This document shows, one piece after another, positions 3 through 23,634 of a stretch of 40,663 bases of DNA (the first letter of the stretch is position 1; every line of letters starts with the position of its first letter). The notes below the pieces were generated by a model, which worked only from the letters and a program-made list of their open reading frames with translations, was not told where the DNA came from and did not search any database. The position numbers and the translations under genes were made by a program. The DNA lies in assembly GCA_044351695.1 (NCBI GenBank), contig JBILFF010000003.1, positions 1-40,663 on the forward strand, written 5' to 3'. This stretch comes from Bdellovibrionota bacterium. GTDB taxonomy: Bacteria > Bdellovibrionota > UBA2394.

Positions 3-473
3 CGAGAGGCGATTCATTTAGCAGAAATCAGTTTGCTCGCTTTGGTCACGCCTGATCGGATGGTTCGCGAGTACGAAAAAACAGCGCGCCGAATTCAAGA
101 AGGTTTTCAGTTAGTTTACGGCGAAGAAAATCAAATCATGAAAGACTTCACCCAGCCGCTCTTGATTAGCCTTCGTCAATCCGCACTGCGTGCCCGAGTC
201 GAACTTTTCAATCCTTTTTTATCTGTGAATATTAAGGGCGAAAGTCCGTTTCACTTGGCTAAGAGTGCTTTTCAGAGTTCCGAGAAATTATTTAAAAAGC
301 TTGAGGGTGTTTTAGAGGCCGATCGTCGCTACAACGAGGAACTCGTCAAGCAGACCGAGTCTTTGCACCGCTTTTTAATGAAAAAACAAACCGACTATGA
401 GCTTCAAAAAACTCGAGAAATATGGGCGGAGTTTATGGAGGGAGCCTTTCACGTTCCGGCGGCTTTGCCTTAA
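3..473 (+). CDS. Hypothetical helical protein, 5'-truncated by the window edge
   Basis: Frame is open from position 3 (REAIHLAEISL...) into ORF 33..473; charged, helical composition; no recognisable motif. Confidence 0.6.
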   Translation, partial: REAIHLAEISLLALVTPDRMVREYEKTARRIQEGFQLVYGEENQIMKDFTQPLLISLRQSALRARVELFNPFLSVNIKGESPFHLAKSAFQSSEKLFKKLEGVLEADRRYNEELVKQTESLHRFLMKKQTDYELQKTREIWAEFMEGAFHVPAALP

Positions 474-498
474 GATTGAAGATCACTCCTTTAGGTTC

Positions 499-1059
499 TT
501 AAAGGGTTTTCAAGGCTTCTTGATAGAGCTTTCTAATGCCCTCATCTTGGATATCTAAAGATTCCAGTTGTTTGAGAAGCTGTTCAAAATATTCCAGACT
601 GGTTCCATTTTGCCCTCGAGATCGGGCCAGTAAGGAGATCTTTTCAGTTTCACTTAAACGTCCCGCGTACTGTGGACTTTCGGGATTGCAAACAAAAGTG
701 AGCGCCTTTCCAGCCTCTCCAGAGTCTAAAGAAAATTCAAACCAATGCTCATCGTAAATGGGCGTCCAGACTTGCTCGTGTGGGAGTCGTTGACCACGTT
801 CGCGAAATAGAACTTTTTGGTAAACCGACTCATAGTTTTGGGGCGCGACTTGAAAAAGGATTCCCGTGCAGGATCCGCCTCGGTCCAGCCCCAACACCAG
901 CCCTGGATTTTCGGGCGTGCCTCGGTACTTCCAGCTATAAACGCTAGGCGATCTCGAAAAGCCTTGAAGCTCAAAAACCCAATTTCTTTCGAATTCAAAA
1001 TCAGGGTTCCACATCAATGAGCCGTAACCAAAGATAAACAGGGGCTGCTGAGCGGCCAT
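499..1059 (-). CDS. chaC: ChaC-family gamma-glutamylcyclotransferase
   Basis: FIFGYGSLMWNP, YRGTPENPGLVLGLDRGGSCTG, RE and G-x-S-x-EY motifs; ATG at 1059 preferred over 1137. Confidence 0.9.
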   Translation of the reverse strand: MAAQQPLFIFGYGSLMWNPDFEFERNWVFELQGFSRSPSVYSWKYRGTPENPGLVLGLDRGGSCTGILFQVAPQNYESVYQKVLFRERGQRLPHEQVWTPIYDEHWFEFSLDSGEAGKALTFVCNPESPQYAGRLSETEKISLLARSRGQNGTSLEYFEQLLKQLESLDIQDEGIRKLYQEALKTL

Positions 1060-1225
1060 AGGTTTGTATACCACAGATTCGAGGGCTCGGTGGGCATGTC
1101 CAAAAAATCCCACAACTGTGGTTTTGGGCCACAGCATGAGGGGTCGACAGGCCTAGAGGACTGCATAAAATCCATTTCCAGTCAGTGTAGATTCGGCACG
1201 CGACTTGCGATGCTCGCCTCTCGCG

Positions 1226-2086
1226 ATGGAGTTTAAGACGAGAATTTCTAGTATTACCTTTGCTGTAAAGTTGTTGGTACTCGCTACGCTATTATGTGTC
1301 GGGGCGTTCTTGGCCTTGCAGAATAGTCTTCTTCTGAATTTGGTGGGGGCGATCATTTTAGGGGTGATGTTTGCTCATGCGGTCGAACTTCAGCATCAAT
1401 GTCTCCATGCTACGGCCTTTCGATCGAAAGAATGGAATTTGTGGATCGGACGCATTCTGGGTATTCCACTTTTTGTGTCTTTTGCGCACTATCGCGCGCG
1501 ACATTTTGAGCATCATTCTTGTTTGGGCACTCCGAAGGACCGAGAGTTTTTTTCTTATCGAAATGAAGAAGCGAAACCCCTTTGGACAGCGATGAAGTCC
1601 TGGCTTCGATTGGATCGATTTCGCCTGTGCATTTTGGATGGCGCACGTGCTTGGTTGGGTCGTGTCCCCTCGGACATCTCGACCCCTCGTGACCGGCGAT
1701 TGGCTTCTAAAGAATATCGATTCCTTTTGATTTTCTTTCTTTTGTTAGCACTTTTAGGCCTTTTATTTCCCAAAGAAGTTTTATTTCTTTGGGTTTTGCC
1801 AGCCTTGGTGGTGGGAGAAGTCACTCATATTTTAATAGAGCTTCCAGAGCATTATGCGGTCGACACCCTGTCCTCAAACCCGCTCGTCAACACACGAAGC
1901 ATCACGGGCTCTTTTTTTTCGTATTGGTTAACGAATGGAAACAACTTTCACGTCGAGCACCATCTCTATCCACACCTCTCTATCGATCAGTTGCCGTTGG
2001 TACATCGCTCGATTCGGGCGGAGATAGAGGCACTTGACCCCACGTATTGGGCATTTTTTAAAAAGGTCTTAAAAGGAGCGAACTAG
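1226..2086 (+). CDS. Membrane di-iron fatty-acid-desaturase-family protein
   Basis: Three His boxes (HQCLH, HFEHH, HVEHH) plus hydrophobic segments; ATG at 1226 likely start. Confidence 0.9.
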   Translation: MEFKTRISSITFAVKLLVLATLLCVGAFLALQNSLLLNLVGAIILGVMFAHAVELQHQCLHATAFRSKEWNLWIGRILGIPLFVSFAHYRARHFEHHSCLGTPKDREFFSYRNEEAKPLWTAMKSWLRLDRFRLCILDGARAWLGRVPSDISTPRDRRLASKEYRFLLIFFLLLALLGLLFPKEVLFLWVLPALVVGEVTHILIELPEHYAVDTLSSNPLVNTRSITGSFFSYWLTNGNNFHVEHHLYPHLSIDQLPLVHRSIRAEIEALDPTYWAFFKKVLKGAN

Positions 2087-2087
2087 C

Positions 2088-2708
2088 TTGATCATTTTTT
2101 TTGAAGCCTTCCTTTTGGGGCTTGCCTATGCGATGCCTTTAGGACCTCAAAATGTTTTTGTGATTCACTCGGTATTGACCAACCCCTGGAAACAGTCCTG
2201 GAAGGTTCCCAGTTTTGTATCGCTCGTGGATATTTCGCTCGCCATGGCTTGCTTTTTTGGAGTCGGAACATTGCTCAAGCTGTCACCTTGGGTGGAGCCA
2301 GCTCTTCTCGCTTTTGGATGTGTTTTTCTTCTTTGGATGGGATGGAAGATTATTCGTTCTCGGCATAAAGTTCAGGTGCAGTCTGGCCAAAAAACTCCGC
2401 TCAGCTCCTGGAAAGTTTTGCGAGCGGCTCTCGTTTTAACTTGGCTCAATCCCCAAGCTCTCTTAGACGGAACCCTTCTTTTTGGATCTTATAGGGCGAC
2501 CTTAGGTGCCGAGGAGACGATTTACTTTTTGGCCGGTATTAGTGTGGCTTCTCCGCTTTGGTTCTTCCTCCTATCCGCCTTTGTCAGTATTTGGAGAACC
2601 AACAGTGTCGAAAAATTATTTTGGTTTGTGAGCTGGATTTGTGGTTTAGGCATGATCCTTTACGCACTTCGCCTCGGCGTTCATCTCTATGAAAGGCTCG
2701 TCCTATGA
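2088..2708 (+). CDS. LysE/ArgO-family exporter
   Basis: PLGPQNVFVI and LTWLNPQALLD motifs; about six hydrophobic segments in 206 aa. Confidence 0.9.
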   Translation: MIIFFEAFLLGLAYAMPLGPQNVFVIHSVLTNPWKQSWKVPSFVSLVDISLAMACFFGVGTLLKLSPWVEPALLAFGCVFLLWMGWKIIRSRHKVQVQSGQKTPLSSWKVLRAALVLTWLNPQALLDGTLLFGSYRATLGAEETIYFLAGISVASPLWFFLLSAFVSIWRTNSVEKLFWFVSWICGLGMILYALRLGVHLYERLVL

Positions 2709-3829
2709 TTCATTTGGTTTATCTGAGTTGTCTGATTCTCTCGCAAACATCGCCCGTTCGGATCGCCATTATGGATCGACTTCAATCGCAAACGCTGGCT
2801 TCCGAAAAATATGAAAAGGATTATTTTTTAGGCATTGAGCTCGGTAAGCGACAAATGGCTGAACAGGGCATTCCGCTTGAGTGGAAGTACTTTGAGTTGG
2901 GTCAGGAGCCTGTATCCATCCTAGAAAGAGTTTCGGAGGTTGAAGCCTGGAACCCGGATGTCATCATTGGACCTCGATCTTCTAATCGCTTCTTACTTTT
3001 AAAGAATAGCTTTCCCAAGCGCTTAGTCATATCGCCTTTGGCCACGGCAGAAGCGGTGGGCGCCCTGCCCGACAATCTCTATTCGATATCGTATCCAAAT
3101 CGTTTTGCGACGGAGGCTTTAGTGAATTTTTCGATCCAAAGGCTTAAGCCAAGAGGGATTCATGCAATCATTGAATCGGAGTGCAAGAATTGTCGCGATT
3201 TTGCCGATGTCTTCTTATCTAAGTTCAAAAAGCGACGCCCGAGTATGCATATTTCTGAGGCGACCTTTGCGACGGCGACGGTGGAGAGCGTCGATGTAGA
3301 GAAGCTTTTAGTGGGATATCGAAAGGGAGATTTGATTTTATTGCCTAACACTTCATACTCCTCAGGAATACTCGCCTCTAAACTGAGTGACCGACTTCAG
3401 GATGAGAACCTCATTTTTTTAGGAAACGATGATTGGGGTCCTTGGAGTGCGTCGAATTTTGGTAGGATCCAGTCTAAGCAGGATGTAAGTGGATATCTAG
3501 TAAACCCATGGGCTTTCGAATCGGCCCGTGTTTTGGGGGATGTCTTTAAAAAAGAGTACGCTAAATTCATGACGACGACCTCCGAACCGGAGCGTATTTC
3601 TTTAATTGCCTTTGCCGCCATGAAATTGATTCAAACGGTGAGCTCTGAAAAGAATCTACTGGGTCTTCCCAGCGACAAGCGAGCGGCTGGGTTTCTTAAG
3701 GCGTTTTTAGAAATGAAAGCAAAAAACCCCTTTGTTTTTCGATCGGAGCGATTTGCCATTCTGAAGTACACGAAGAAGGGCTCAGAGTTCATTGAGTCGG
3801 TTCGGGTTCCCAGAGAGTCTATCCCGTGA
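2705..3829 (+). CDS. Type I periplasmic binding protein (LivJ-like)
   Basis: Short N-terminal hydrophobic signal; PDVIIGPRSS, VISPLATA and FLGNDDWG match LivJ-like patterns; ATGA overlap with the LysE gene. Confidence 0.75.
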   Translation: MIHLVYLSCLILSQTSPVRIAIMDRLQSQTLASEKYEKDYFLGIELGKRQMAEQGIPLEWKYFELGQEPVSILERVSEVEAWNPDVIIGPRSSNRFLLLKNSFPKRLVISPLATAEAVGALPDNLYSISYPNRFATEALVNFSIQRLKPRGIHAIIESECKNCRDFADVFLSKFKKRRPSMHISEATFATATVESVDVEKLLVGYRKGDLILLPNTSYSSGILASKLSDRLQDENLIFLGNDDWGPWSASNFGRIQSKQDVSGYLVNPWAFESARVLGDVFKKEYAKFMTTTSEPERISLIAFAAMKLIQTVSSEKNLLGLPSDKRAAGFLKAFLEMKAKNPFVFRSERFAILKYTKKGSEFIESVRVPRESIP

Positions 3830-5148
3830 AGAGCCTTCAGGATGTCATTCGGCGCCAGATTGTTTCTAGAGTGGCTGGTGTCATTGCGATTCTGGTCCTC
3901 TTGAATTTAAGTTTTAGCACCTATGAAGCTTTGCGATTAGTAGAGGATCTAAAAAAGTCGCTTCGAGCGGAACTGGTGGAGCTAGAGAATTTTGTGATTG
4001 GACAAGTGTTGGTCGATAATGAAGAGTCTATTCCCGAGCGATTAGAGGTTTTTAAAGATCGGCACCCGGAGCTGACTATTCAATGGAATCATTCAGCAAA
4101 CCTCGACTTGGAGGGCTTTCGCTGGCACTTTCCAGATCGGTTTCAGTGGGAAGTTCCGTTACGTAGTATTGGATCTCAGCGCTTTGGAAGCATTTTTATC
4201 GATGGATCTTATTTTGCCTTTGAAAGTGCGCTTCATGAATTTGGACGGCGAACTGTATTTTTAGTGATTGTCACCATTCTCATTTTGAGTTTGCTGGTGC
4301 CCTTAGTAAATGTTGTTCCCAATCGCTTTTTTATGCAACCCATCCATCGGACCTTGGCCCTCTTGGAGGGCAAAGAAAGTCCTGAGGACTTAGCTTCAGC
4401 TCCCGAAGTTCAAGAGGTGTATGATATCCAGATGCGAATTCAATCTCTTTTGAAGGAGATTGAGTTGAAGTCGCGAGAGGCTGCCGTTTCTGAAGTGGCT
4501 TCTCGTGTGGCGCATGATATTCGATCTCCTGTGGGCGCTATCTTGATGACCATTTCGGATGATTCCGTTCTCGATGCCGATGCCAAGAAAATACTAAAGG
4601 CTTCTGCGTTGAGGGTCCAGGCGATATCGAGTCAGCTCCTAAAAGAGTATGCGGAGCCAACGTCATCATGGACTCAGAACTTTAGGCAACTGGTAGAGGC
4701 TCTGATCAAGACGATACGTGCGGAGTTTTCGGGGCATGAGCCTACGAAGGTAGATTTGCAAATGGACGATGTGTCCGCGCAATTGCCACCAAGTCCACAT
4801 ATTTTAGAGTTAATCCAGGTCTGCTCGAATCTCCTCAAGAATGCCTTTGAAGCAGTAGATCCAGATACGGGAGTGATTGATGTAAAAATCAGTGTGAGAA
4901 ATCAGAATGTGAATTTAGAAGTTACGGATAACGGTAAGGGCATGCCTCAAGAGATTCTCGTAAAATTGGGAACGGATGTGATCACGCATGGTAAAGGTGG
5001 TTCGGGGACTGGCTTAGGGATTTTACGCTCTCAACAAAGCATCCGCATGCGCGGCGGAAGTTTGATGGTCGAATCCGAGCAGGGCAGAGGCACTCGCGTC
5101 TTGGTTGTTTTGCCGCTAACGGAATCGATTTCTCAGAAAGGAAATTGA
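3826..5148 (+). CDS. Membrane sensor histidine kinase
   Basis: Two TM segments flanking an extracytoplasmic region of about 110 aa; H box VAHDIRSP, N box SNLLKNAFEA, G1 DNGKGM, G2 GTGLG. Confidence 0.93.
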   Translation: MKSLQDVIRRQIVSRVAGVIAILVLLNLSFSTYEALRLVEDLKKSLRAELVELENFVIGQVLVDNEESIPERLEVFKDRHPELTIQWNHSANLDLEGFRWHFPDRFQWEVPLRSIGSQRFGSIFIDGSYFAFESALHEFGRRTVFLVIVTILILSLLVPLVNVVPNRFFMQPIHRTLALLEGKESPEDLASAPEVQEVYDIQMRIQSLLKEIELKSREAAVSEVASRVAHDIRSPVGAILMTISDDSVLDADAKKILKASALRVQAISSQLLKEYAEPTSSWTQNFRQLVEALIKTIRAEFSGHEPTKVDLQMDDVSAQLPPSPHILELIQVCSNLLKNAFEAVDPDTGVIDVKISVRNQNVNLEVTDNGKGMPQEILVKLGTDVITHGKGGSGTGLGILRSQQSIRMRGGSLMVESEQGRGTRVLVVLPLTESISQKGN

Positions 5149-5151
5149 ATT

Positions 5152-5886
5152 ATGAATCTTAGCCTGAACGGAAAAATTTCATTGGTCACTGCTTCGACTC
5201 AAGGAATTGGTTTGGCCATCGCTCGGTCGTTGGCTGCCGAGTCCGCTCGAGTGGTTTTGTCGAGCCGGGATGAGTCGCGCCTTAACTCTATATCTTCTGA
5301 GATCGGTGCCTTCGGTATTGTTCCGGCAGATTTATCGAAGCCGAAAGAGGTAGAAAGCCTCTGTCATCGCTTTACCATGGCCTTTGGATCTCCGGAGATT
5401 TTAGTGATCAATATGCCAGGCCCACCCAAGGGTTTATTGATGGATTTAGAGTGGACCGATTGGCAGATGGGATTCGAGGCTTTGTTTTCTCCCGCCGTAC
5501 AGTTGATGAAGTGGGCGATGCCCGCGATGAAGGAGAAGGGCTTTGGTCGAATTGTCTTGGTGACCTCGCTGGCGGCCAAAGAGCCGATCGCCAAGATGCC
5601 CATCTCGAGCAGCCTTCGTACGGGACTATCGAGCTTGGTGAAGCTCGCGTCTCGGGACCTCATTGCGCATGGTATCACCGTGAATGCTGTTTTGCCGGGT
5701 TGGACGCTCACTCCGGGAGTCGAGAAGTTGAAGGTTGCGGAGGCAATGGCTCCTACGCTGCCACAAAAAAGACTGCTCCATCCTCAAGAGATTGGCGACG
5801 TGGCTTGCTTTTTGTGTTCGCAACAAGCCTCGGGACTCACAGGCCAGTCGATTTTGGTGGATGGTGGAGCGACGAGCGCACTTTAA
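5152..5886 (+). CDS. SDR-family oxidoreductase (atypical FabG-like subgroup)
   Basis: VTASTQGIG, INMPGP, GITVNAVLPG, TGQSILVDGG; SSSLR in place of YxxxK. Confidence 0.9.
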   Translation: MNLSLNGKISLVTASTQGIGLAIARSLAAESARVVLSSRDESRLNSISSEIGAFGIVPADLSKPKEVESLCHRFTMAFGSPEILVINMPGPPKGLLMDLEWTDWQMGFEALFSPAVQLMKWAMPAMKEKGFGRIVLVTSLAAKEPIAKMPISSSLRTGLSSLVKLASRDLIAHGITVNAVLPGWTLTPGVEKLKVAEAMAPTLPQKRLLHPQEIGDVACFLCSQQASGLTGQSILVDGGATSAL

Positions 5887-5992
5887 AAGAATTGATATTT
5901 CGGCGCGACAAGTGCCGGCAAGTCGACTTAGGATAACTCCGCTTAATGAAAGTTCTTGATTCAGGACGCGGATTGTTGCATAGCCTCGCCCC

Positions 5993-6652
5993 ATGAGAGA
6001 CGCCTCACTGCTATTGAAATCAAGAGTTCTAGCCGCCCTCGTGTTGGGAGTGGGTTTAATGGGTTTGTTCATGCCGCAGTCTGCACACGCTTTTGATACG
6101 CTCTATTGTGGGCTGACTCGGGTGCCTGATTTAGAAGACTATCGAGGTATTGAGAAGATTACGGGGAGTACATTTGAGAGTATCCCCTTTGCGCTCAATG
6201 ACACTGAAAAAGCCTTTGCCGCTCAGATAAGTCAGGACCCGGCGGTGTTTGTCTTGTATGAAAAGCTGCCGAAAAGAGAAACAATCCCGATGGAGTACAA
6301 GCTGTCGGTGATTCGATCTTCAAGCATTAAGGTTGAGGATCTTATTGAGCAGCCCAAGAAAGAGGCAGCTCTAAGGGCTGCCAAGCGAAAGCCTGACTTT
6401 GCCATGAGTTCTGTCACCACCATCCAAAATCCTGACCAAAATGGAAGCTACGCTGATGGTGCAGAGGGAGACAGTATTGCCTTTGGACCTGCGTCAGTAT
6501 CTGACGCTGCCTCAAATGTAGGTTTGAACACGCTCAGCCGAGACGGCAGAGTGTTGCAAAGTAGTTGTATCATCTGTGATCAAGTCTTTTGTAGCCGACT
6601 CATTAAACCCCAGGACTACATTGAAACCAAAATTGAAAGAAAAAGGCGGTAG
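5993..6652 (+). CDS. Secreted hypothetical protein with four Cys
   Basis: Signal peptide ending AHA; Cys in YCG and CIICDQVFC. Confidence 0.7.
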   Translation: MRDASLLLKSRVLAALVLGVGLMGLFMPQSAHAFDTLYCGLTRVPDLEDYRGIEKITGSTFESIPFALNDTEKAFAAQISQDPAVFVLYEKLPKRETIPMEYKLSVIRSSSIKVEDLIEQPKKEAALRAAKRKPDFAMSSVTTIQNPDQNGSYADGAEGDSIAFGPASVSDAASNVGLNTLSRDGRVLQSSCIICDQVFCSRLIKPQDYIETKIERKRR

Positions 6653-6653
6653 C

Positions 6654-7268
6654 ATGAAAATCTTTTTTGCTGTGTTGGTATGGGTCGGCTCAGCCGCAAC
6701 GGCCAGAGCCCAAGAGATGTGGTGTTCAACTGTGATCGAAAATCTTGAATCTGGCCAGCGGACGGTCGGGTTCACTGCCACTGGAGTTCCAACGCGCGAG
6801 CAAAGTGCGCAGGGTCTCGCCAGCGGGCAAAGGCTAGGCGCTGTAGTGTCCATGCTACCAGATCGCAGTGAGAAGATAACGGGGCTCTTGAAGTTAGGAC
6901 GCAATCGCGGGACCGCGGGCACTTTTGACCTTTGGATTTTTCGATCACGAGGCGATGTGCCTTCGGGCAGCGTTTATAGAGAACTTGCAAAGGATCTTAA
7001 AGTTTCATCGTCTGGTCAAAATGGCTCAACCACTCAGTTTAGTTTTTGGGCTGGAAGAGTCAGATACAATGACGTGCCGGAGCAGTATCTGAGTGCAGTA
7101 CCCACCTATTCGTATAGCACAGGCAAAGAGTACATAGATCATATCTGCCAAATGTGTTCGCCCAAAATGAAAACCTGCCCCAACCTTGAAGATCCTGCCG
7201 TCCTCAAGCAAGAAGCTGAAAAGCTAAATGCGACGCTTGTTGAACTTAAACCCTTTGACTTCTTTTAG
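6654..7268 (+). CDS. Secreted hypothetical protein with four Cys
   Basis: ATG at 6654, 1 nt after the upstream stop; signal MKIFFAVLVWVGSAATARA; Cys in MWC and CQMCSPKMKTC. Confidence 0.75.
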   Translation: MKIFFAVLVWVGSAATARAQEMWCSTVIENLESGQRTVGFTATGVPTREQSAQGLASGQRLGAVVSMLPDRSEKITGLLKLGRNRGTAGTFDLWIFRSRGDVPSGSVYRELAKDLKVSSSGQNGSTTQFSFWAGRVRYNDVPEQYLSAVPTYSYSTGKEYIDHICQMCSPKMKTCPNLEDPAVLKQEAEKLNATLVELKPFDFF

Positions 7269-7492
7269 TTGAAGCTTCGCTATGCGTCGTTATGTTTCGT
7301 TAATCCTTCGGATAGTCGCGTAAATTTGTATTACTTTCATATGAGGTGTGGGACCCCTCACACTCATTTCAGAGATGAGGAGTGGGTGCGATATATTCGA
7401 GACAAGTACGAATTCTCTCTGAGTTAAGAGTCGATAGCCCTGACAATGAGAAGATCTATGCAGGCACGGGGCCTAAGTAGCTGATTTCAAAT

Positions 7493-7527
7493 AAGCTTCG
7501 GTGGGCTGCCCAAAGCCACCAAAGCTT
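7493..7527. other. Imperfect inverted repeat, possible terminator or regulatory hairpin
   Basis: aagcttcggtgggct...agccaccaaagctt; no clear U tract. Confidence 0.4.
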
Positions 7528-7541
7528 GCTATGAGGTTCCC

Positions 7542-8963
7542 GTGGTTCGCGTGCTTTATCAGTCGGTTTTTTTAGCGGTTATTTTTTCGCTCGGTCCTAT
7601 CACCGAGCTCGATGCCTTGCCCAAGGGGCGTTACGATTGTCCTACCAGCATAAAATCAATCTTTCATGCGCAGTTATGGAGAGAGCGTTCAAAGCTTGGA
7701 GGTAAGCCCGCGCGAGCTACCGTGATTCGTTTTACCTCTCAAATGAGAAGCCATTCGCTGGATCTTCAAAAAGCGAATGAAGAAGTGGCCATTTGGATCG
7801 ATGAGTTTTTGAGCTACCGTGATCGCCTTGAAAGTTTTCCGGCTGGGCTCAAACGTCTTCGAAAGCGAATCGAAATCTTAGAGACCGCTTTCAAAGCGGA
7901 CGCGCCCAAGAGCACGGAGCCCTTTGAGGAGGTTCTGCTTCCCCCAGCGCCAGATAAAATTGGGGGCGTCATTGTGGTTCCTCAGAATCCAGCCTTTGTC
8001 AGTCGGCTCGTTAAAGACAAGAGAGCTTTAAGAAGATTGATCAACGAAGAAGTTCTGGAGTTGAAAAAATTTGAAAGTGCTTTGAGAGCTCTGAGAGAGC
8101 AACAGGCGATCTACTTTGTGAGATTTAGTATTATTCTTAAGCTGTGGAATGAATCTTCCGAGCAGAGTAATCGAATCGAGCACCACCCCATCACCAAGCA
8201 GCGCTTGCAGTTAATAAGAGACATTGAAGATCTGTTAGATCCCCGAGGATTGTTTATCGAGTATCATCCGGATCCAGAAATTTTTGCTTGGGCACAAAAT
8301 CTCTATCGCTATGATCAGATCTTCAGAGAGTTTCGTCGGCGCAGTCACATCGAAGATCCGCTCAATGTCATGAATTGGGTGAATCAAAAAGCAAAAGATT
8401 TTGTGAAATTACATTCTGAAAAACTAGCATGGGTGGGCGCTATTACAACGGTTTTAGGAACCTATGGATTTTTTCAGAGTCAGCTGAGGGCCATTCGAGA
8501 GCAAACGAGTGAGATTAGGGATCAGCTTGTGGAGACCGTTAAGTCACCTGAGGAGTTGAAACGAGAAAGGGAAGAGCGAGAGAAGGTCGAGCGTGAAAAA
8601 CAATTGATCGCTGACGCAAAAATCATCGCTGAAAAATCGGAATCTTGGGATGAAATCGAGACTCGATTTGCTCAGTTTATGTCGAGGTTTCCTGCAGAGT
8701 CGGGCATTATTTGGGGCCAAGTCAAAAACGGAAAACGAAAAGATTTTACTGAAGACACCTCATTTCACCCCTTCTTCTTTGAGCAAGCTCGTGAGATTGA
8801 CCTGTGGTGGAACCGCATTCAAGAGGGTTATGTGCTTAGTGGTGAGCAACTCATCTACGGGGCTCGGGGGCGTTTTGAGGTTCGTCGTGAGTCGCGAGAT
8901 CTCCTGCGTCAGTTTCTAGATAGATTGGAGTTCTCCTCCAGGGCTGACGATAAACCCCAGTGA
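7542..8963 (+). CDS. Hypothetical exported or membrane-anchored helical protein
   Basis: 473 aa; N-terminal signal-like segment, internal hydrophobic stretch LAWVGAITTVLGTYGFF, E/K/R-rich coiled-coil-like region. Confidence 0.75.
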   Translation: MVRVLYQSVFLAVIFSLGPITELDALPKGRYDCPTSIKSIFHAQLWRERSKLGGKPARATVIRFTSQMRSHSLDLQKANEEVAIWIDEFLSYRDRLESFPAGLKRLRKRIEILETAFKADAPKSTEPFEEVLLPPAPDKIGGVIVVPQNPAFVSRLVKDKRALRRLINEEVLELKKFESALRALREQQAIYFVRFSIILKLWNESSEQSNRIEHHPITKQRLQLIRDIEDLLDPRGLFIEYHPDPEIFAWAQNLYRYDQIFREFRRRSHIEDPLNVMNWVNQKAKDFVKLHSEKLAWVGAITTVLGTYGFFQSQLRAIREQTSEIRDQLVETVKSPEELKREREEREKVEREKQLIADAKIIAEKSESWDEIETRFAQFMSRFPAESGIIWGQVKNGKRKDFTEDTSFHPFFFEQAREIDLWWNRIQEGYVLSGEQLIYGARGRFEVRRESRDLLRQFLDRLEFSSRADDKPQ

Positions 8964-9427: not shown

Positions 9428-12400
9428 GTGTCACACGCTATTCGTTCTGAACAAAGTCTACAGCCCGCTTACCCCATACGATTTGTAACGGCTGCCTCTC
9501 TTTTTGATGGGCATGATGCGGCGATCAACATTATTCGTCGAATACTTCAGGATCAGGGATGCGAGGTGATCCACCTGGGTCATAATCGCAGTGTCTCCGA
9601 GATCGTGCGGGCCATTATCCAAGAAGATGCCGATGGAGTCGCGATTAGTTCTTATCAGGGTGGTCACAACGAATTCTTTAAGTATTTGATCGACTCACTT
9701 AAAGCTGAGGGCTTCGGGCATGTGCGCGTTTTTGGTGGCGGAGGAGGAGTTATTCTTCCTCGCGAGAAAAAAGATCTCGAAGCCTATGGTGTAGATAAAA
9801 TTTTTCTTCCCGAAGACGGAATGAAGTACGGGTTAGAGGGCATGATTCGGCTCATGATCGAGTCCTGCGTTAAGGTTCGCGAGTCACGACCAGCTCCCGT
9901 TTTAAATTTTGATCACCCCAAGCTTTGGGGGCAGACGCTGACGCAACTTGAGCGAAGCACTTCTCTCCCCAATCTTCCCAAATCCAAAAAACAACCGGTA
10001 GTCGTGGGTGTGACGGGCACGGGAGGCGCGGGCAAGAGCTCTTTGGTCGACGAGCTGATTCTTCGTTTTTTGTATGAGCATCCTGGCCTTAAAATGGCGA
10101 TCTATTCAGTCGATCCTACCAAAAAGCGAACGGGTGGTGCGCTTTTGGGGGATCGTATTCGAATGAATGCGATTGAAGACGACCGTGTTTTTATGCGCTC
10201 GCTTGCCACGCGGGGCAGTGGCTCTGAAATTGCGGACTCTGTGCAAAGAATCGTACAGGCCTCCAGAGCTAGTGATTTTGATGTCATTATTGTTGAGACG
10301 TCAGGAATTGGACAAAGTGGAAGTGCGATCACCCAATTTGCAGATCTCAGTCTATACGTGATGACCTCTGACTACGGAGCTGCCACTCAGCTCGAGAAAA
10401 TCGATATGATCGATTTTGCGGACCTGATCGCAGTCAATAAGTTTGAGCGACGCGGTTCAGAAGATGCGCTTCAAGCCGTTCGAAAGCAATATCAGCGAAG
10501 CCGAAAGCTTTTTAATCTTCAAGACCTCTCGGAGCTTCCGATTGTTGGAACTCGATGCAATATCTTTAACGATCCTGGAGTAACGAAGCTCTACCATTTG
10601 CTAAAAACAAAGTTACGTGAAAAGAATTCACAACTCCCAGAGGCCAATAAAAATTTCGACACTTCTGGTAAGATTCAGTCCGTCATTATTCCGCCGGATC
10701 GAGTATTTTATCTTGGGGAGATCGCGAAGGTTTGCAAAGATTATCGTCGTCTAGCTCATCAAGAGATAGCTCAGGCAAGAAAGGCCTATGTTCTTAAAGA
10801 GGCCGCTCAGTGGCTGCCCGATGCAAAGACCCAAGCTCAAGCCGAGTGGGAGGCTCTCTCGTCTGGGTCGAAGGAAGTGCTTGAGCGATGGAGCCAGCTT
10901 GCGAGCGAGTATCAAAATGAGAAAGTTCGTTATCGAGTGCGCGACAAAGAAATTTTAGCGCCACAAATTTTTAAAAGTCTCTCCGGCTCCTTGCTTAAGC
11001 GAGTGGCGGCACCCAAGCTTGAGTCCTGGGATTTGATTCTTAAGTTTAGTTATTTCGAAAATCTACCAGGCTATTTTCCTTTCACAGCAGGAATTTATCC
11101 TTTCAAAAGGCAGGGCGAGGAACCTCGGCGCCAGTTTGCAGGCGAAGGTCCTCCGGCGCGCACCAACGCACGTTTTCACTATTTGTGTCGACACGATCAG
11201 GCTAAACGACTTTCGACCGCTTTTGATTCGGTGACTCTCTACGGAGAAGATCCTGCACTGCGCCCCGATATTTATGGCAAAGTGGGCGAGAGTGGAGTGA
11301 GCATCGCTACTCTGGAAGACATGGAGGTTCTGTATAAGGACTTCGATCTTTGCGACCCTAATACTTCGGTATCAATGACGATCAATGGGCCTGCCCCGAT
11401 CTTGCTGGCGATGTTTATGAATACTGCTATCAATCAGCAGCTTCAAAGATTTAAAGAAAAGAATCGTCGCGAGCCCCATGCGGAAGAGCGTCTTGAGATT
11501 GAAAAACAAACCTTGGCGAATGTTCGAGGCACGGTACAGGCGGATATCTTAAAAGAGGATCAGGCTCAAAATACCTGCATTTTTTCCACTGAATTTGCAC
11601 TTAAAATGATGGGTGATATTCAAGAGTACTTCATTCAAAACAAAGTAAGAAATTACTACTCCGTGAGCATCTCCGGGTATCATATTGCAGAAGCTGGAGC
11701 GAATCCCGTCACGCAGCTCGCTTTCACTTTGGCCAATGGTTTTACGCTCGTAGAGTACTATCTTTCGCGCGGGATGAAGATCGATGAATTTGCACCTAAT
11801 CTTTCATTCTTTTTTAGCAATGGTCTAGATCCTGAGTACTCAGTTTTGGGTCGAGTGGCGCGCCGTATTTGGTCCGTGGTGATGAGAGACCGGTATGGAG
11901 CTAATGAACGATCTCAAAAGCTTAAATATCACATTCAAACCTCGGGCCGCAGTCTTCATGCGCAAGAAATCGAATTCAATGATATTCGTACGACGCTTCA
12001 GGCGCTCACTGCGATTTACGATAACTGTAACTCCCTTCATACCAACGCCTACGACGAGGCTATCACTACACCAACAGAAGAAAGTGTGCGCCGTGCGATG
12101 GCGATTCAAATGATTATTGAGCGCGAGTATGGTTCGGCAAAAACAGAAAACTTTTTGCAAGGTTCTTATGCCATGGAAGAGCTCACAGATCTGGTCGAGG
12201 AGGCTGTGCTTGCTGAGTTTGAGCGTATTTCTTCTCGCGGCGGTGTTTTGGGAGCCATGGAGATGCAGTATCAGAGGGCCAAGATTCAAGAAGAGAGTCT
12301 GCACTACGAGCATCTCAAGCATAGCGGGGAGCTGCCCATCGTGGGGGTGAACACTTTTCAGTCGGAGCAATCGCAGTCGATTGAAAATATCGAGATTTCG

Positions 12401-12622
12401 CGTTCGAATCCTGAAGAGAAGAATCAGCGCCTTGAAGATCTTAAGAAGTTTTGGGCCAAACATGCTCAAGAGTCGTCTCATGCGCTGCAGTCGCTAAAGG
12501 CAACGGCGATCTCGGGCGGCAATATTTTTGAAGAACTCATGAAGGCTGTGCGCTCTTGTTCGCTCGGACAAATTTCGCAAGCGCTTTACGAGGTCGGTGG
12601 TAAGTACCGCCGCAATATGTGA
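9428..12622 (+). CDS. icmF: Fused isobutyryl-CoA mutase / G-protein chaperone IcmF
   Basis: N-terminal B12-binding domain (FDGHDAAIN), MeaB-like GTPase ([17 protein letters not shown]), mutase barrel ([35 protein letters not shown]). Confidence 0.96.
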
Positions 12623-17866: not shown

Positions 17867-17896
17867 TTGACCCTAAATTCATCGATTCGTTATTCT
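17867..17896 (+). promoter_or_regulatory. Putative sigma70 promoter of the nuo operon
   Basis: TTGACC-N18-TATTCT, ending 6 nt before GTG 17903. Confidence 0.5.
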
Positions 17897-17902
17897 CGGC
17901 CC

Positions 17903-18277
17903 GTGCTTCTCTCTGATTATTGGGGCGTTATCATTTTAGGAGTTCTTGGGGTTTTAACGGGTGCTGGCGCCGTTTTGGCGAGTCAGATCGTGGGGACGCG
18001 CAAATTTCATCCGGCGAAGGCTAGTCCCTACGAGTGTGGAATTCCCACTGTCGGGGCCGATAACCAGCGTTTTTCGGTTAAATTCTACATGGTTGCGGTG
18101 TCTTTTATCCTTTTCGATATTGAAACCGTCTTTTTGGTGCCTTGGGCTCAAACGTTTCGTGGTTTTGTAGCGATGGGTGAGGGAGCCTATATCTTTACAG
18201 TTGGCGCTGTCTTTTTGGTCGTCTTAACCTTGGGCCTGCTCTACGAGTGGCGCAAGGGCTTATTGGATTGGAATTGA
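17903..18277 (+). CDS. nuoA: NADH-quinone oxidoreductase subunit A
   Basis: KASPYECG, FSVKFY, FDIE, YEWRKGLLDW. Confidence 0.95.
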   Translation: MLLSDYWGVIILGVLGVLTGAGAVLASQIVGTRKFHPAKASPYECGIPTVGADNQRFSVKFYMVAVSFILFDIETVFLVPWAQTFRGFVAMGEGAYIFTVGAVFLVVLTLGLLYEWRKGLLDWN

Positions 18278-18281
18278 TTGG

Positions 18282-19361
18282 ATGTTGGAAGCCTTTTTGC
18301 CCTGGATCTTTTTAGGTGCAAAGATCCTTTTGTTTTTTGGAATCGTATTTGGGGCGGTTGCTCCCGTGATGATTTGGGTAGAGAGGCGAGTCGCCGCTTT
18401 GATTCAAGATCGCGTAGGCCCCAACCGCGTGGGGCCGTTCGGTCTTCTTCAGAGTTTAGCCGATGGAATTAAGCTTGTTCTTAAGGAGCCACTGGAGCCC
18501 GAAGGTGTCGTGAAGCCTTACTATTATTTAGCTCCTGTGTTAGCGGTGATTCCGGCGGCGCTTTCTTTTGCCGTGATCCCCTTTGGGCCGCCCACAACGC
18601 TTGGGGGTTTGTTTGAGACTCCTCAGCGACTTCAGATTGCTGAGCTGAATGTTGGTATTTTGTTTTTGATGGCGGTGAGCTCTTTATCTGTATATGGGGT
18701 CGCGCTAGCTGGGTGGTCTTCAAATAACAAATTCTCAGTTCTTGGGGCTCTTAGGGCTTCAGCTCAAATGATTAGCTACGAGCTGGCAGCGGGTCTGGCA
18801 GTGGTCACTGTTATTTTATTAGCGGGGACTGCTGACCTAGTGGGCATCGTCGAGTCTCAGGCTTCCATGTGGCATATTCTGCCGGGCTTTTTTGCGTTTT
18901 TTGTTTTTTTACCGGCCATCTATGCAGAGACGAATCGAAGTCCCTTCGATCTTCCGGAGGCTGAGGCCGAGTTAGTCGTTGGTTACCATACGGAGTACTC
19001 GGGTATTAAGTTTGGCCTCTTTTTTCTCGCCGAATACGCCATAATGACTTCGTTATCGGCTGTAGCGGTTTTGATGTTTTTGGGGGGCTGGGAGCTCTGG
19101 CCCGGTTTTGGCTGGAACGATCTATATTCGACTTTGGGTTTAGATTGGACGATCGACGGAACGAGCAATATTTTGGGGACTTTGCTTCCCGTTGTTTGGT
19201 TTGTCACCAAGGTGGCTTTCTTTTTGTTTCTTTTTGTTTGGGTTCGCTGGACCTTGCCTCGATTTCGATACGATCAGTTGATGAGCTTGGGTTGGAAGCG
19301 GCTCCTTCCTCTGGCCATCGTGAATCTCACCCTTACAGCCGCTGTGATTGCGCTTTGGTAA
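18282..19361 (+). CDS. nuoH: NADH-quinone oxidoreductase subunit H
   Basis: ERR...QDRVGPNRVGPFGLLQSLADGIK, AETNRSPFDLPEAEAEL, PRFRYDQLM. Confidence 0.97.
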   Translation: MLEAFLPWIFLGAKILLFFGIVFGAVAPVMIWVERRVAALIQDRVGPNRVGPFGLLQSLADGIKLVLKEPLEPEGVVKPYYYLAPVLAVIPAALSFAVIPFGPPTTLGGLFETPQRLQIAELNVGILFLMAVSSLSVYGVALAGWSSNNKFSVLGALRASAQMISYELAAGLAVVTVILLAGTADLVGIVESQASMWHILPGFFAFFVFLPAIYAETNRSPFDLPEAEAELVVGYHTEYSGIKFGLFFLAEYAIMTSLSAVAVLMFLGGWELWPGFGWNDLYSTLGLDWTIDGTSNILGTLLPVVWFVTKVAFFLFLFVWVRWTLPRFRYDQLMSLGWKRLLPLAIVNLTLTAAVIALW

Positions 19362-19364
19362 AAA

Positions 19365-19922
19365 ATGGAAGCAACCAATCTTGTTTTTTATGTTCTTGCG
19401 GGCCTGATCCTCGTCACCGGTGGGTTGGTCGCTTTTAGGCCCAAGCCCATCGAAGGGGCGTTGTGGTTGATCGTTAATTTTATCTGCACATCGGCACTGT
19501 ACGTGTTGCTGGGAGCTCATTTTGTCGCTGTGATTCAGGTTCTCGTCTACGCAGGGGCGATTGTGGTTCTTTTTACTTTTGTGATTTTACTGCTTAACTT
19601 GAATCCCAAAGAGCTGGGCTTAACGGCGGCGGTTCCATGGACGACCGTTGTCCTGTTATCGAGCACGATAGCGGTGGTTTTTTTATGTCTTCATGTGGCG
19701 ACACCGGAATTGCTCAAACCTCTTCCTGCGCTCAGTGAAGAGGCTTCAGGTTGGGGAAGTTTGGATCATTTTGCTAAAGTCTTTTTACACCAATACGTTT
19801 GGGGATTCGAAGTTGCAGGCGTGTTGCTTTTAATGGCCGTTCTTGCGGTAGGGCTTTTGGCCCATCGAAAAAAGAAAGCCACGTTGACCGCGGTGTCTTC
19901 ACAGAACTCGGAGGGTGCCTAA
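19365..19922 (+). CDS. nuoJ: NADH-quinone oxidoreductase subunit J
   Basis: QVLVYAGAIVVLFTFVILLL, FEVAGVLLL. Confidence 0.95.
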   Translation: MEATNLVFYVLAGLILVTGGLVAFRPKPIEGALWLIVNFICTSALYVLLGAHFVAVIQVLVYAGAIVVLFTFVILLLNLNPKELGLTAAVPWTTVVLLSSTIAVVFLCLHVATPELLKPLPALSEEASGWGSLDHFAKVFLHQYVWGFEVAGVLLLMAVLAVGLLAHRKKKATLTAVSSQNSEGA

Positions 19923-20231
19923 GTGTTGACGGTTCCCATCGCACATATTTTATTTCTCTGTTTTGGCCTTTTTGTCCTTGGGGCCGGCGGATTTTTGATT
20001 CGTAAGAACGCGCTTTCGATGCTGATTTGTTTAGAGCTCATGCTCAATGCTGTAAACATTTCCCTGGTGAGTTTTGCTCGAATGCACGGCAATGAGGGTG
20101 GTAATGCCATCTATTTTTTGGTCATTACAGTAGCCGCTTGCGAGACGGCGGTAGCGCTGGCGATTATTTTAAATCTCTTTCGTTTACGAAGAAGCATTCG
20201 CTTGGATGATGCGACCAGCTTGAAAGGCTAA
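19923..20231 (+). CDS. nuoK: NADH-quinone oxidoreductase subunit K
   Basis: LELMLNAVN, VAACETAVALA. Confidence 0.95.
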   Translation: MLTVPIAHILFLCFGLFVLGAGGFLIRKNALSMLICLELMLNAVNISLVSFARMHGNEGGNAIYFLVITVAACETAVALAIILNLFRLRRSIRLDDATSLKG

Positions 20232-20235
20232 GACA

Positions 20236-22134: not shown

Positions 22135-22138
22135 AAAC

Positions 22139-23623
22139 ATGGAGTTGAGTGGAAATTATCTTCTAGTTTTGCTTTTGCTTCCTTTTGTTTCAGCCTTCGT
22201 CTTGGCACTACTCTCTAAGCCTGCTGCGGGGCTTGTTTCTGTGGGCCTTTCTGCTTTATTTTTGGTGGTCGTCATTGCGGGTTGGGGGGCCGAGTCTCTG
22301 CGATTTCAGGCGCCCTGGTTTGAAAACTTTGGCTTGAGCTACAGTCTGCATTTGGATTCATACAGTTATTTTTTGATTCTGCTGTCGGCGTTTTTAACAC
22401 TGAGTTGCCTTTTTTATTCACTTAAAAAAGTCAGTCTTCATGAAAAAGCCTACCATGCTTTGTTTCATGCCTTGCAGGGTACCGTCGTCGCGAGTCTTTT
22501 GGCTGAGGACCTGTTTTTATTTTATGTGTTTTTCGAGGCAATGCTGATTCCGATGTTCTTTTTGATCGGAATTTGGGGCGGAAAGAACAGGCTTTATGCG
22601 ACGACTAAATTCTTTCTTTTCACTCTTGCAGGCTCGCTCTTGATGCTGGTGGGTTTGATTTCGACTTATGTTTTGTACTTTAGCAAAACAGGCGAGTGGA
22701 GCTCGTCTTTTGAGACCCTTCGGGTTTATTTTGAAGAGAATCCCATACCACTTGGAATTCAGATTTGGATGTTTTTGAGTTTCTTTCTGGCCTTTGCGAT
22801 CAAGGTTCCGTTGTTTCCCTTTCATACCTGGCTACCTGATGCACATACCGAAGCTCCTACGGCTGGCTCAGTGATTCTAGCAGGAATTCTCTTGAAGATC
22901 GGAACCTACGGACTGATGCGATTTGCCGTTCCTTTGTTTCCGCAGGCAGCGATTGAGTTGTCGACGATCATTTGCGTTCTCTCAGTGATTGGAATCATTG
23001 CGGGAGCGGTGGCCGCCTGGCGCCAGACCGACGTGAAGAAGTTAGTGGCTTATTCTTCTGTTTCGCATTTGGGGTTTGTGACGCTAGGAATTTTTTCTTT
23101 GAATGAGATGGCCTGGAATGGAGCTTATATTCAAATGATCAATCACGGCATAAGCACTGGAGCTTTATTCTTTTTGATCGGTTTCATTTACGATCAAAAA
23201 CATTCTCGCGACATCGATTCATTTGGCCAACTAGCAAAAGCGATACCGGTCTTTAGCGTGGTCTTTATCATTGCTTCATTAAGCTCTGTGGCTTTGCCGG
23301 GAACCAATGGTTTCATTGGTGAATTTCTGATTCTTCTAGGCAGTTTTCAGTCCTCAGTAGTGAGCTCGAGTGTTGCGGTTGTGGCGACCACAGGTGTGAT
23401 TCTGAGTGCCATTTACATGATGCATCTGGTTCAAAAGCTTTGCTTTGGGGCCGTTGGACCAAAATCGACGGGCTTGAGTGATTTCGCTCTGAAAGATTGG
23501 ATTCTTTACGCTCCTCTGGTGATTTTGGTTTTTGTAATCGGATTTTTTCCGTCGTGGATTTTGTCCCCAGTGGAGAAAACAAGTTCTCAAATTTTTAAAA
23601 CTTTGCCGAATTTTTTACAGTAA
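22139..23623 (+). CDS. nuoM: NADH-quinone oxidoreductase subunit M
   Basis: FFEAMLIPM, PFHTWLPDAHTEAPT, LPGTNGFIGEF; ATG 22139. Confidence 0.97.
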   Translation: MELSGNYLLVLLLLPFVSAFVLALLSKPAAGLVSVGLSALFLVVVIAGWGAESLRFQAPWFENFGLSYSLHLDSYSYFLILLSAFLTLSCLFYSLKKVSLHEKAYHALFHALQGTVVASLLAEDLFLFYVFFEAMLIPMFFLIGIWGGKNRLYATTKFFLFTLAGSLLMLVGLISTYVLYFSKTGEWSSSFETLRVYFEENPIPLGIQIWMFLSFFLAFAIKVPLFPFHTWLPDAHTEAPTAGSVILAGILLKIGTYGLMRFAVPLFPQAAIELSTIICVLSVIGIIAGAVAAWRQTDVKKLVAYSSVSHLGFVTLGIFSLNEMAWNGAYIQMINHGISTGALFFLIGFIYDQKHSRDIDSFGQLAKAIPVFSVVFIIASLSSVALPGTNGFIGEFLILLGSFQSSVVSSSVAVVATTGVILSAIYMMHLVQKLCFGAVGPKSTGLSDFALKDWILYAPLVILVFVIGFFPSWILSPVEKTSSQIFKTLPNFLQ

Positions 23624-23634
23624 CGGAGTAAGCG

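Follow-up and report, generated by a model that had tools for sequence, protein, structure and literature searches.

A five-gene operon for an enzyme, a carrier and a sensor pair

We analysed a five-gene operon near the start of a 40,663-nucleotide (nt) stretch of DNA from a Bdellovibrionota bacterium (UBA2394; NCBI GenBank assembly GCA_044351695.1, contig JBILFF010000003.1, positions 1 to 40,663 of the forward strand), which we refer to as the window. The operon encodes a desaturase-fold membrane enzyme, a LysE-family translocator, a periplasmic binding protein, a histidine kinase and a protein of the short-chain dehydrogenase/reductase (SDR) fold (Table 1). A sequence-only reading of this DNA had proposed that the two enzymes make or modify a small molecule, that LysE exports it and that the binding protein and kinase sense it, in a make-export-sense signalling circuit. 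Our results make it likely that the genes form one functional unit, a sigma-54 operon in which a LivJ-fold co-sensor and its dedicated kinase are coupled to a LysE carrier and a di-iron enzyme. That this unit works as a sigma-54 make-export-sense feedback loop for an amino-acid-derived molecule is a tentative reading, to which we give slightly less than an even chance.

The same-strand genes are packed as tightly as first described, with open reading frames (ORFs) and junction sequences giving spacings of +1, -4 (ATGA), -4 (GTGA) and +3 nt, and AAAGGAG-like Shine-Dalgarno sequences precede the LysE and SDR genes. Pfam names four of the five genes, the binding-protein gene being the exception. 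A domain scan covering 34 ORFs of the window (11 + 23) found no receiver domain, ABC permease or ABC ATPase, in agreement with the earlier observation that the window holds neither ABC transporter parts nor a response regulator.

Table 1. Genes and promoter motifs of the operon (positions in the window; aa, amino acids).
Feature	Position	Strand	Description
Sigma-70-like match, possible alternative promoter	1144..1171	+	TCGACA-16-TAAAAT; 10/12 positions
Sigma-54 (-24/-12) promoter motif	1195..1208	+	GGCACGcgacTTGC; exact match; ends 18 nt before desaturase ATG
Desaturase-fold gene	1226..2086	+	ORF, ATG start, 286 aa; in-frame TTG at 1205
LysE-family translocator gene	2088..2708	+	ORF, 206 aa
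Binding-protein gene	2705..3829	+	ORF, 374 aa
Histidine kinase gene	3826..5148	+	ORF, 440 aa
SDR-fold gene	5152..5886	+	ORF, 244 aa

The third gene encodes a rare binding protein of LivJ/LivK fold

The third gene product drew no Pfam match even at E ≤ 10 and no NCBIfam match, so its identity is unproven at the level of sequence and rests on its fold. We built an AlphaFold model on 15 homologues (predicted local distance difference test (pLDDT) 87.4; predicted template-modelling score (pTM) 0.85), and a Foldseek search with this model returned LivJ/LivK-type periplasmic binding proteins as its top matches (template-modelling (TM) score 0.74-0.81), the best being 4nv3_A (E 4e-17). The matched proteins function in uptake, with amino, keto and aromatic acids and gamma-aminobutyric acid (GABA) as their ligands, and a structure search of the ESM Atlas matched Peripla_BP_6 clusters. 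By its modelled fold, the third gene product is a periplasmic binding protein of the LivJ/LivK (type I) kind, which upholds the original call on structural grounds and not by any Pfam model.

The family is rare, with 15 relatives found among 5.8 billion cluster representatives, and a profile search of 1.84 billion representatives returned 789 sequences at E ≤ 1e-3 and 115 at E ≤ 1e-30. Only distant LivJ-like matches were present in 13 genomes of the window's own family (best E 1.3e-6); an 89%-identical binding protein (P0002) lies on a different contig. The window copy keeps all invariant residues of the family, and its N-terminal export signal (MIHLVYLSCLILSQTS) is short and uncharged relative to those of its homologues. 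All 15 family members share the motif C160-x-x-C163 (C-K-N-C, window 3182-3193) at the start of a helix, which falls within the predicted kinase interface described below and may form a disulfide, act as a redox switch or bind a metal or ligand. We also considered whether the LysE protein might feed electrons to this CxxC pair in the manner of DsbD/CcdA, an idea that we rejected because its Pfam and NCBIfam matches are plainly LysE/ArgO.

The binding protein is predicted to dock on the kinase sensor domain

The fourth gene product matched only HATPase_c models in Pfam (HATPase_c 71.6 bits), and its best NCBIfam matches were AtoS and ZraS. Its kinase boxes are retained, with an H-box that reads AHDIRSP, and it has no receiver domain. 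Two hydrophobic segments (residues ~7-36 and ~138-170) enclose an extracytoplasmic stretch of ~105 residues, confirming the short outer domain that had been noted from the sequence; this outer domain matched no Pfam family. The sensor domains of 12 kinases that follow the binding protein can nonetheless be aligned with one another, with I58, L62, G121 and G127 invariant and N65, W87 and F120 nearly so.

We predicted the complex of the two proteins from binding-protein residues 17-374 and kinase residues 33-143, each supplied with its own alignment. The pair scored 0.80 (0.82, 0.79 and 0.80 in the individual runs), and all three controls scored 0.00. Of 80 solved complexes, 58 attain the mark applied to this score, as do 2 of 110 mismatched pairs; this calibration is only roughly valid here, as we supplied our own alignments. 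Contact agreement among the runs was 100%, with a partner pLDDT of 77-80. The pairing of binding protein and kinase that had been read from their gene order is thereby joined by a predicted interface, at 0.80 against a best control of 0.00.

On the binding-protein side, the predicted interface consists of loops at the mouth of the cleft that come from both lobes (68-73, 93-98, 117, 158-164 and 187-192), and on the kinase side of segment 52-75, a conserved helix. It holds the invariant S93, F96, L97, C160 and C163 of the binding protein together with I58, L62 and N65 of the kinase. In these models the binding protein is thus predicted to touch the extracytoplasmic domain of the kinase. Recall of a solved structure is an unlikely source of the prediction, because the binding-protein profile finds no PDB sequence and the sensor domain belongs to no family. 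As in the class of solute-binding-protein-dependent sensors, the pair combines a solute-binding fold with gene linkage and no adjacent ABC transporter. A partner that spans both lobes would feel closure of the cleft, as in the LuxP-LuxQ and TorT-TorS complexes treated in PMC8050422.

The sensor pair and the larger gene set recur in other lineages

Our set of loci with a gene for the binding protein numbers 26. Besides the window, it has 11 loci from GTDB genomes, two found via the desaturase and 12 metagenome records, two of which (L114 and L115) appear to be one sequence. By tblastn, 21 of the 26 loci have a kinase homologue after the binding protein, that is, 21/21 of those with at least ~900 nt of downstream sequence; the remaining five contigs end inside the binding-protein match or no more than 471 nt past its end. 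Desaturase and LysE genes lie directly upstream of the binding protein in nine of the 26 loci (the window, L013, L014, L015, L043, L072, L110, L111 and L112). Apart from the window and L112, which is cut after the binding protein, these loci have the order desaturase-LysE-binding protein-SDR-kinase. The desaturase-bearing loci come from metagenome-assembled genomes (MAGs) labelled Pseudomonadota, Polynucleobacter, Peribacteria and Oligoflexales, the others being unlabelled contigs. Two further contigs are truncated within the region, L038 (Oligoflexales) ending just past desaturase-LysE and L120 starting within the binding protein. Since the set recurs in other phyla, the operon arrangement is not a product of chance, and the linkage first seen in a single locus holds by both counts.

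In 15 of the 26 loci, labelled Legionellales, Coxiellaceae, Neisseriaceae or Gammaproteobacteria or found on metagenome contigs, the binding protein-kinase pair occurs without desaturase and LysE. Among these loci, L016-L023 and L113-L119 often have nearby genes for a classical SDR, an HTH_26 protein and a protein of 300-337 aa whose receiver domain is partial, and their kinases have C-terminal extensions of 200-300 residues.

A sigma-54 promoter motif and NtrC-type regulators

The sigma-54 motif upstream of the desaturase gene is the only match in the window, where 0.08 would be expected (8 of 100 shuffles have one), and across 1.17 Mb of unrelated loci the strict motif turns up at a background rate of 0.94 per 100 kb. 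The strict form, GGCAC-N5-TTGC, also occurs 30-55 nt before the likely start of the regulator gene in L014, L015 and L072, with one-mismatch motifs at the corresponding place in L112 and L043. L072 has two more strict motifs (3158-3171 and 2510-2523), one of them upstream of a gene for an ICMT/PEMT-like methyltransferase, which lies before the regulator gene.

An NtrC-type regulator, with a receiver and a sigma-54 AAA+ domain, stands directly before the desaturase gene in L014, L015, L072, L111 and L112. These five cluster regulators form one clade (support 100/100) and are 46-62% identical where compared. L110 has a more distant sigma-54 regulator, and L013 and L043 have hybrid kinases with a receiver domain. 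The window genome encodes rpoN and 13 sigma-54 activator genes. Of the latter, only the regulators encoded on contigs C196 and C106 are placed as sister group of the cluster regulators (support 94/91, not starred in the tree), and they are the nearest relatives of these regulators. On C106 (L123:1941-6464), the gene for a Peripla_BP_6 protein (410 aa) overlaps that of a 560-aa histidine kinase by 4 nt, beside a divergent sigma-54 response regulator, whereas C196 carries its sigma-54 regulator and no kinase on a 6.1-kb contig. Because the C106 regulator adjoins a binding protein and kinase of its own and the C196 contig lacks a kinase, we take the C196 regulator as the candidate partner of the window kinase.

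The LysE carrier is fused to the binding protein in some homologues

The second gene product matches PF01810 at 98.1 bits against a Pfam cut-off of 25.6, and its best NCBIfam models are the L-lysine exporter TIGR00948 (94.7 against a cut-off of 213.65) and ArgO (85.7 against 298). By these scores, it belongs to the LysE/ArgO branch and falls below both equivalog cut-offs. LysE and ArgO export lysine, arginine and analogues (PMC8498466). By analogy with such characterised family members, the carrier presumably exports in this operon as well, a view on which the fusions described next cast doubt.

Five 50%-identity cluster representatives (P0009, P0147, P0149, P0150 and P0242, the last a fragment) join a LysE protein to the binding protein. 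Each has a full LysE domain followed by the binding-protein domain, with a linker of ~15 residues or fewer after the last LysE helix and no signal peptide. The P0009 fusion probably sits in a desaturase-type cluster, a placement whose sole basis is that its contig and the contig of the desaturase homologue P0115 have the same length (46,801). As the LysE and binding-protein genes overlap by 4 nt, such a fusion would be an easy mutation. The title of a paper on ArgO topology, cited within PMC8498466, puts the ArgO C-terminus outside the cell (N-in/C-out); with that topology the fused binding domain would be periplasmic. At the level of protein architecture, the fusions argue for a physical and functional coupling of carrier and receptor. 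They fit import at least as well as export, and could equally reflect capture of an exported product or anchoring of the receptor near the kinase.

A desaturase-fold enzyme with biosynthetic relatives

The first gene product matches PF00487 (FA_desaturase) at 133.8 bits, and its histidine boxes HQCLH (H57-x3-H61), HFEHH (H93-x2-HH) and HVEHH (H242-x2-HH) are invariant in 30 homologues. Its best NCBIfam match is GntB, the L-arginine hydroxylase of guanitoxin, and lipid desaturase models score lower (DesB 40.5 bits, DesA 31.8 bits). One account describes GntB as a transmembrane enzyme that yields 4-hydroxy-arginine (10.1101/2023.03.21.533663), in conflict with a review that makes it alpha-ketoglutarate-dependent (PMC12371840); we prefer the former description, as the alignment of the NCBIfam GntB model with the window membrane protein runs from end to end. 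A second precedent is RtxC, an amino-acid desaturase in the pathway to rhizobitoxine, an enol-ether amino acid that is secreted (PMC6304460).

To characterise the wider family, we retained 80 of 328 desaturase loci in GTDB genomes and counted neighbours in 79 of them by crude ORF calling. An A-T-TE gene resembling a nonribosomal peptide synthetase was present in 36/79, followed by amidohydrolase (13), class III aminotransferase (10), FeeM-like N-acyl amino acid synthase (9), heme-oxygenase-like oxidase (7), ThiF (6) and ATP-grasp ligase (6). Individual loci contain a lysine/ornithine N-monooxygenase or an ornithine cyclodeaminase, ferredoxin genes adjoin in L036 and L092, and a Sorangium locus (L040) has the desaturase-LysE pair alone. 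The family sits mostly in specialised-metabolite clusters. Given the GntB match, these neighbours and the preference of the LysE protein for lysine/arginine exporter models, we read the desaturase as a putative biosynthetic enzyme that acts on an amino acid or a derivative; a lipid-like N-acyl amino acid could also be its substrate. On the desaturase tree, the LysE-linked label requires three changes, and the window sequence forms a long branch.

In L033, L042 and L092 (Winslowiella, Pseudomonas and Aliivibrio), desaturase homologues head a conserved gene set with PNPOx-like, heme-oxygenase-like di-iron, 2OG-Fe_Oxy_2, GNAT and ThiF members and sometimes a semialdehyde dehydrogenase. From its composition, this set looks like an uncharacterised cluster for an amino-acid-derived natural product. 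A possible link to mangotoxin was dropped, the papers in question concerning a soluble heme-oxygenase-like enzyme.

The SDR protein of the operon

The fifth gene product matches adh_short_C2 at 151.1 bits in Pfam. An SDR gene lies beside the binding protein-kinase pair in 17 of the 26 loci and is of two kinds. The first is classical, with a YxxxK motif, and occurs in seven loci without desaturase; the second has Y-x6-R in its place and lies between binding protein and kinase in eight desaturase-type loci and in L020. The window SDR belongs to the second kind but is placed after the kinase. NCBIfam models gave only generic matches to the cluster-linked SDRs, far under their cut-offs. Instead of acting as a dehydrogenase, the window SDR may serve as an accessory protein that binds NAD(P).

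One homologue, P0155 (649 aa), carries a classical SDR and the binding protein in one frame, joined by a linker that resembles translated intergenic sequence running into the signal peptide of the binding protein. It is either a fusion of cytoplasmic SDR, membrane anchor and periplasmic receptor or an artefact of gene calling.

A proposed feedback module

We propose that the five genes supply the effectors and the sensor of a feedback module under sigma-54 control, which in other bacteria also has an NtrC-type response regulator of its own as its first gene. As modelled, the periplasmic LivJ-fold protein would lay the mouth of its cleft on kinase helix 52-75, and ligand-driven closure would change kinase output. 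The kinase would then act on a sigma-54 activator, so that the promoter at 1195-1208 fires and drives production of the membrane di-iron enzyme, which would hydroxylate or desaturate an amino-acid-like precursor. The LysE-type carrier would release the product into the periplasm beside the binding protein, with which it forms one polypeptide in some species, and the outcome would be self-induction by an amino-acid derivative that the cell makes and exports. What the computations show is the gene layout and its conservation, the fold, the predicted interface, the fusions and the promoter motif; we infer that the ligand is the enzyme's product, that LysE exports, the sign of the feedback and the role of the SDR. 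This make-export-sense scheme best fits the combination of biosynthetic desaturase relatives, an exporter family and a regulator inside its own operon.

The make-export-sense claim of the sequence-only reading therefore survives in part. Gene linkage, the predicted interface, the sigma-54 regulators and promoter motif, and the fusions all fit it; the supposition that the enzymes of the operon make the sensed molecule is unsupported, and the fusions suit uptake too. The more specific notion that two enzymes make the signal is doubtful, as the SDR goes with the sensor pair and not with the desaturase, and the window copy has no tyrosine.

Several observations weigh against the feedback scheme. 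The binding protein-kinase pair without desaturase or LysE in 15 of the 26 loci must there sense something made elsewhere, and the SDR accompanies the sensor pair in both types of locus rather than the desaturase. The window SDR contains no tyrosine in the whole protein; SSSLR aligns with the YAATK of classical SDRs, and the YxxxK motif is absent. The GntB model matches the window desaturase at 57 bits, far under its cut-off of 380, and many neighbours of the desaturase family (FeeM-like, KS, A-T-TE) would also suit a lipid-like substrate. A single clade of LysE-linked desaturases is neither shown nor rejected (approximately unbiased test, p-AU 0.47). Mapping of the ligand pocket gave no foothold: the binding-protein family profile found no PDB sequence at E ≤ 0.01, and hhalign against E. 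coli LivJ returned a probability of 1.8% with the wrong lobe aligned, leaving the residues of alpha-amino acid recognition unmapped. Tethering of a binding protein to a translocator is classically seen in importers, not in exporters. As for the promoter, the sigma-54 motif lies so close to the ATG at 1226 that the leader would span only ~6 nt, without a Shine-Dalgarno sequence; the sigma-70-like match, which lies upstream of it, is the best of 6 in 400-7600, a number not raised over shuffles (mean 6.6). Finally, the window genome (97.7% complete) has no orthologue of the cluster regulators, the best match being 32-36% identical, and the window copy of the module may therefore be rewired or decaying.

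Rival readings of the operon

Many of the same observations can be read the other way round, as sensing followed by import and modification: the binding protein would hand an amino-acid-like compound from outside to LysE, acting as a binding-protein-dependent secondary importer, and alert the kinase, and the regulator would induce the carrier and two processing enzymes. This reading gives the best fit to the five LysE-binding protein fusions with their very short linkers and to the usual role of NtrC-type systems, and importers with fused binding domains, such as OpuA and GlnPQ, share the tethered architecture. NtrC-family two-component systems usually run nutrient uptake genes from sigma-54 promoters (DctBD, AauSR), and the kinase's closest NCBIfam models (AtoS, ZraS), the 15 of 26 loci in which the sensor pair does without a desaturase and the uptake function of the LivJ-fold relatives all point the same way. 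Set against these are the biosynthetic rather than catabolic neighbourhoods of the desaturase family and the composition of the operon itself, whose genes include no catabolic enzyme and none that would feed the sensed compound into central metabolism; moreover, the characterised LysE/ArgO-type proteins named in the part of PMC8498466 available are all exporters. We consider this import reading somewhat unlikely. The same source describes protection by ArgO and LysO against canavanine and thialysine, and exporter mutants that suffer on lysine-containing dipeptides (PMC8498466), which would suit an antimetabolite or overflow valve: in the periplasm the pair would detect a toxic analogue of a basic amino acid, or an amino-acid surplus, and induce the LysE exporter and modifying enzymes, so that the cytoplasm stays clear. 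The best scores of the LysE protein, against lysine and arginine exporter models, agree with such a valve. It leaves unexplained why the sensor's binding protein should be fused or tethered to an exporter, though, and gives no role to a membrane di-iron oxygenase with relatives in biosynthetic clusters, so that we think it quite unlikely. Uptake and detoxification of an outside compound are nonetheless serious competitors of the feedback scheme.

A different question is whether the window copy still works, and its being a rewired or decaying remnant, which has lost its regulator, has its SDR moved behind the kinase and stripped of the catalytic tyrosine, and has a poor export signal on the binding protein, would be compatible with any of the functional readings. 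The window genome lacks a regulator orthologue, and the window alone, of the nine desaturase-bearing loci, shows no sigma-54 regulator next to the operon and no hybrid kinase (L013 being cut upstream); its SDR has no tyrosine where cluster-linked SDRs have Y-x6-R, and a close binding-protein homologue is missing from the 13 same-family genomes. Yet the five frames are open with tight junctions, the invariants of the binding protein, the kinase boxes and the histidine boxes of the desaturase are kept, and the sigma-54 motif is exact. The 89%-identical P0002 on another contig and the position of the orphan C196 regulator in the sister group of the cluster regulators likewise speak for a working module, and decay is, in our judgement, unlikely. 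As each gene comes from a large family, one might suppose instead that unrelated genes lie side by side by chance: one for a lipid desaturase, one for a housekeeping amino-acid exporter, and others for an orphan binding protein, for a kinase and for a dehydrogenase. Metagenome contigs and MAGs with the labels Oligoflexales, Polynucleobacter, Pseudomonadota and Peribacteria show the same set and order, however, and the LysE-binding protein fusions and the predicted interface on invariant residues contradict the idea, which makes it extremely improbable.

Other features of the window

Upstream of the operon, on the opposite strand, lies a ChaC-like gene. Directly after the operon on the + strand, 5993-8963 holds three ORFs (219, 230 and 473 aa) that match no family in Pfam or NCBIfam; a 77-nt overlap between the first two casts doubt on at least one of the start or ORF calls. 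Further along, 9428-12622 encodes a single protein of 1064 aa, IcmF-like in layout, that joins a B12-binding domain to a MeaB-type GTPase and a methylmalonyl-CoA-mutase domain. A row of genes for membrane subunits of complex I occupies 17867-25152 (chain 3/NuoA, NuoH, chain 6, 4L and three Proton_antipo_M proteins), with the peripheral-arm genes absent between the first two genes.

Significance and comparison with known systems

Only a handful of sensor kinases are known to depend on a binding protein, and none of those reviewed in the available part of PMC8050422 has a LivJ-type partner or a link to an exporter. In the present loci, members of a rare binding-protein family are always accompanied by a kinase of one family, whose sensor domain is undescribed, and frequently by a LysE carrier, with which they can be fused. 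If the make-export-sense scheme is true, the operon would bring a new signal chemistry based on a modified amino acid, a first signal-exporter role for LysE carriers and a compact cassette; if the uptake reading is true, it would be the first binding-protein-dependent LysE transporter. Either outcome would be new biology for a very common transporter family. The arrangement is not described in the open-access literature text that we searched, and searching of the related literature turned up lipid and alkane enzymes only. We hold it possible, if doubtful, that the operon represents a new autocrine or quorum class, with a hydroxylated or desaturated basic amino acid as signal, a LysE exporter coupled to a LivJ-fold receptor, a new kinase sensor domain, sigma-54 positive feedback and a cassette that moves between phyla.

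The sequence-only reading had likened the binding protein and kinase to LuxP/LuxQ and ChvE/VirA, a likeness that stands for the layout and fails for family membership, since the fold is of another class, the binding protein and the sensor domain have no family match and the genes linked to them are others. LuxO, the output of the LuxP-LuxQ pathway, is an NtrC-type sigma-54 activator. In the Vibrio LuxP-LuxQ-(LuxU)-LuxO autoinducer-2 system, an orphan type I binding protein docks on the outer domain of a kinase without an ABC transporter (PMC8050422), as is predicted for the window pair. The hybrid kinases of L013 and L043, with their receiver domain, add a likeness to LuxQ. The window binding protein differs from LuxP, a Peripla_BP_4 protein, in its LivJ/Peripla_BP_6 fold and its lack of a Pfam match, and the kinase differs from LuxQ in that its outer domain of ~105 residues belongs to no known family and does not show the periplasmic tandem-PAS arrangement. 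Unlike LuxPQ-LuxO, the window operon includes a putative synthase and an exporter, and a regulator gene is absent from the window.

The orphan binding protein NspS of Vibrio cholerae reports a self-made amine, norspermidine, to the membrane signalling protein MbaA. NspS-MbaA differs from the window system in its GGDEF-EAL partner, its PotD-like binding protein and its lack of a linked exporter or synthase. TorT-TorS, ChvE-VirA, XylFII-LytS, HptA-HptS, BctC-BctE and CBP-ChiS follow the same co-sensor principle, usually with adjacent genes; as far as the available part of PMC8050422 goes, these pairs have no Peripla_BP_6/LivJ-type partner and no coupling to LysE, and most control uptake or respiration of the nutrient that is sensed.

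With LysE of Corynebacterium and ArgO of E. coli, the window carrier has its Pfam family and size in common. Known LysE/ArgO members are under LysR-type regulators (LysG, ArgP) rather than a circuit of binding protein, kinase and sigma-54, and we know of no LysE/ArgO member fused to a binding protein. GntB and RtxC resemble the window desaturase as enzymes that act on a free amino acid and not on a lipid, although the window enzyme is not a GntB orthologue (57 vs 380 bits); RtxC, which we take to have a fatty-acid-desaturase fold, is similar to it by description only. Two-component sensing that depends on a binding protein is known, and what is new here is that it is joined to a LysE carrier and a desaturase-fold enzyme.

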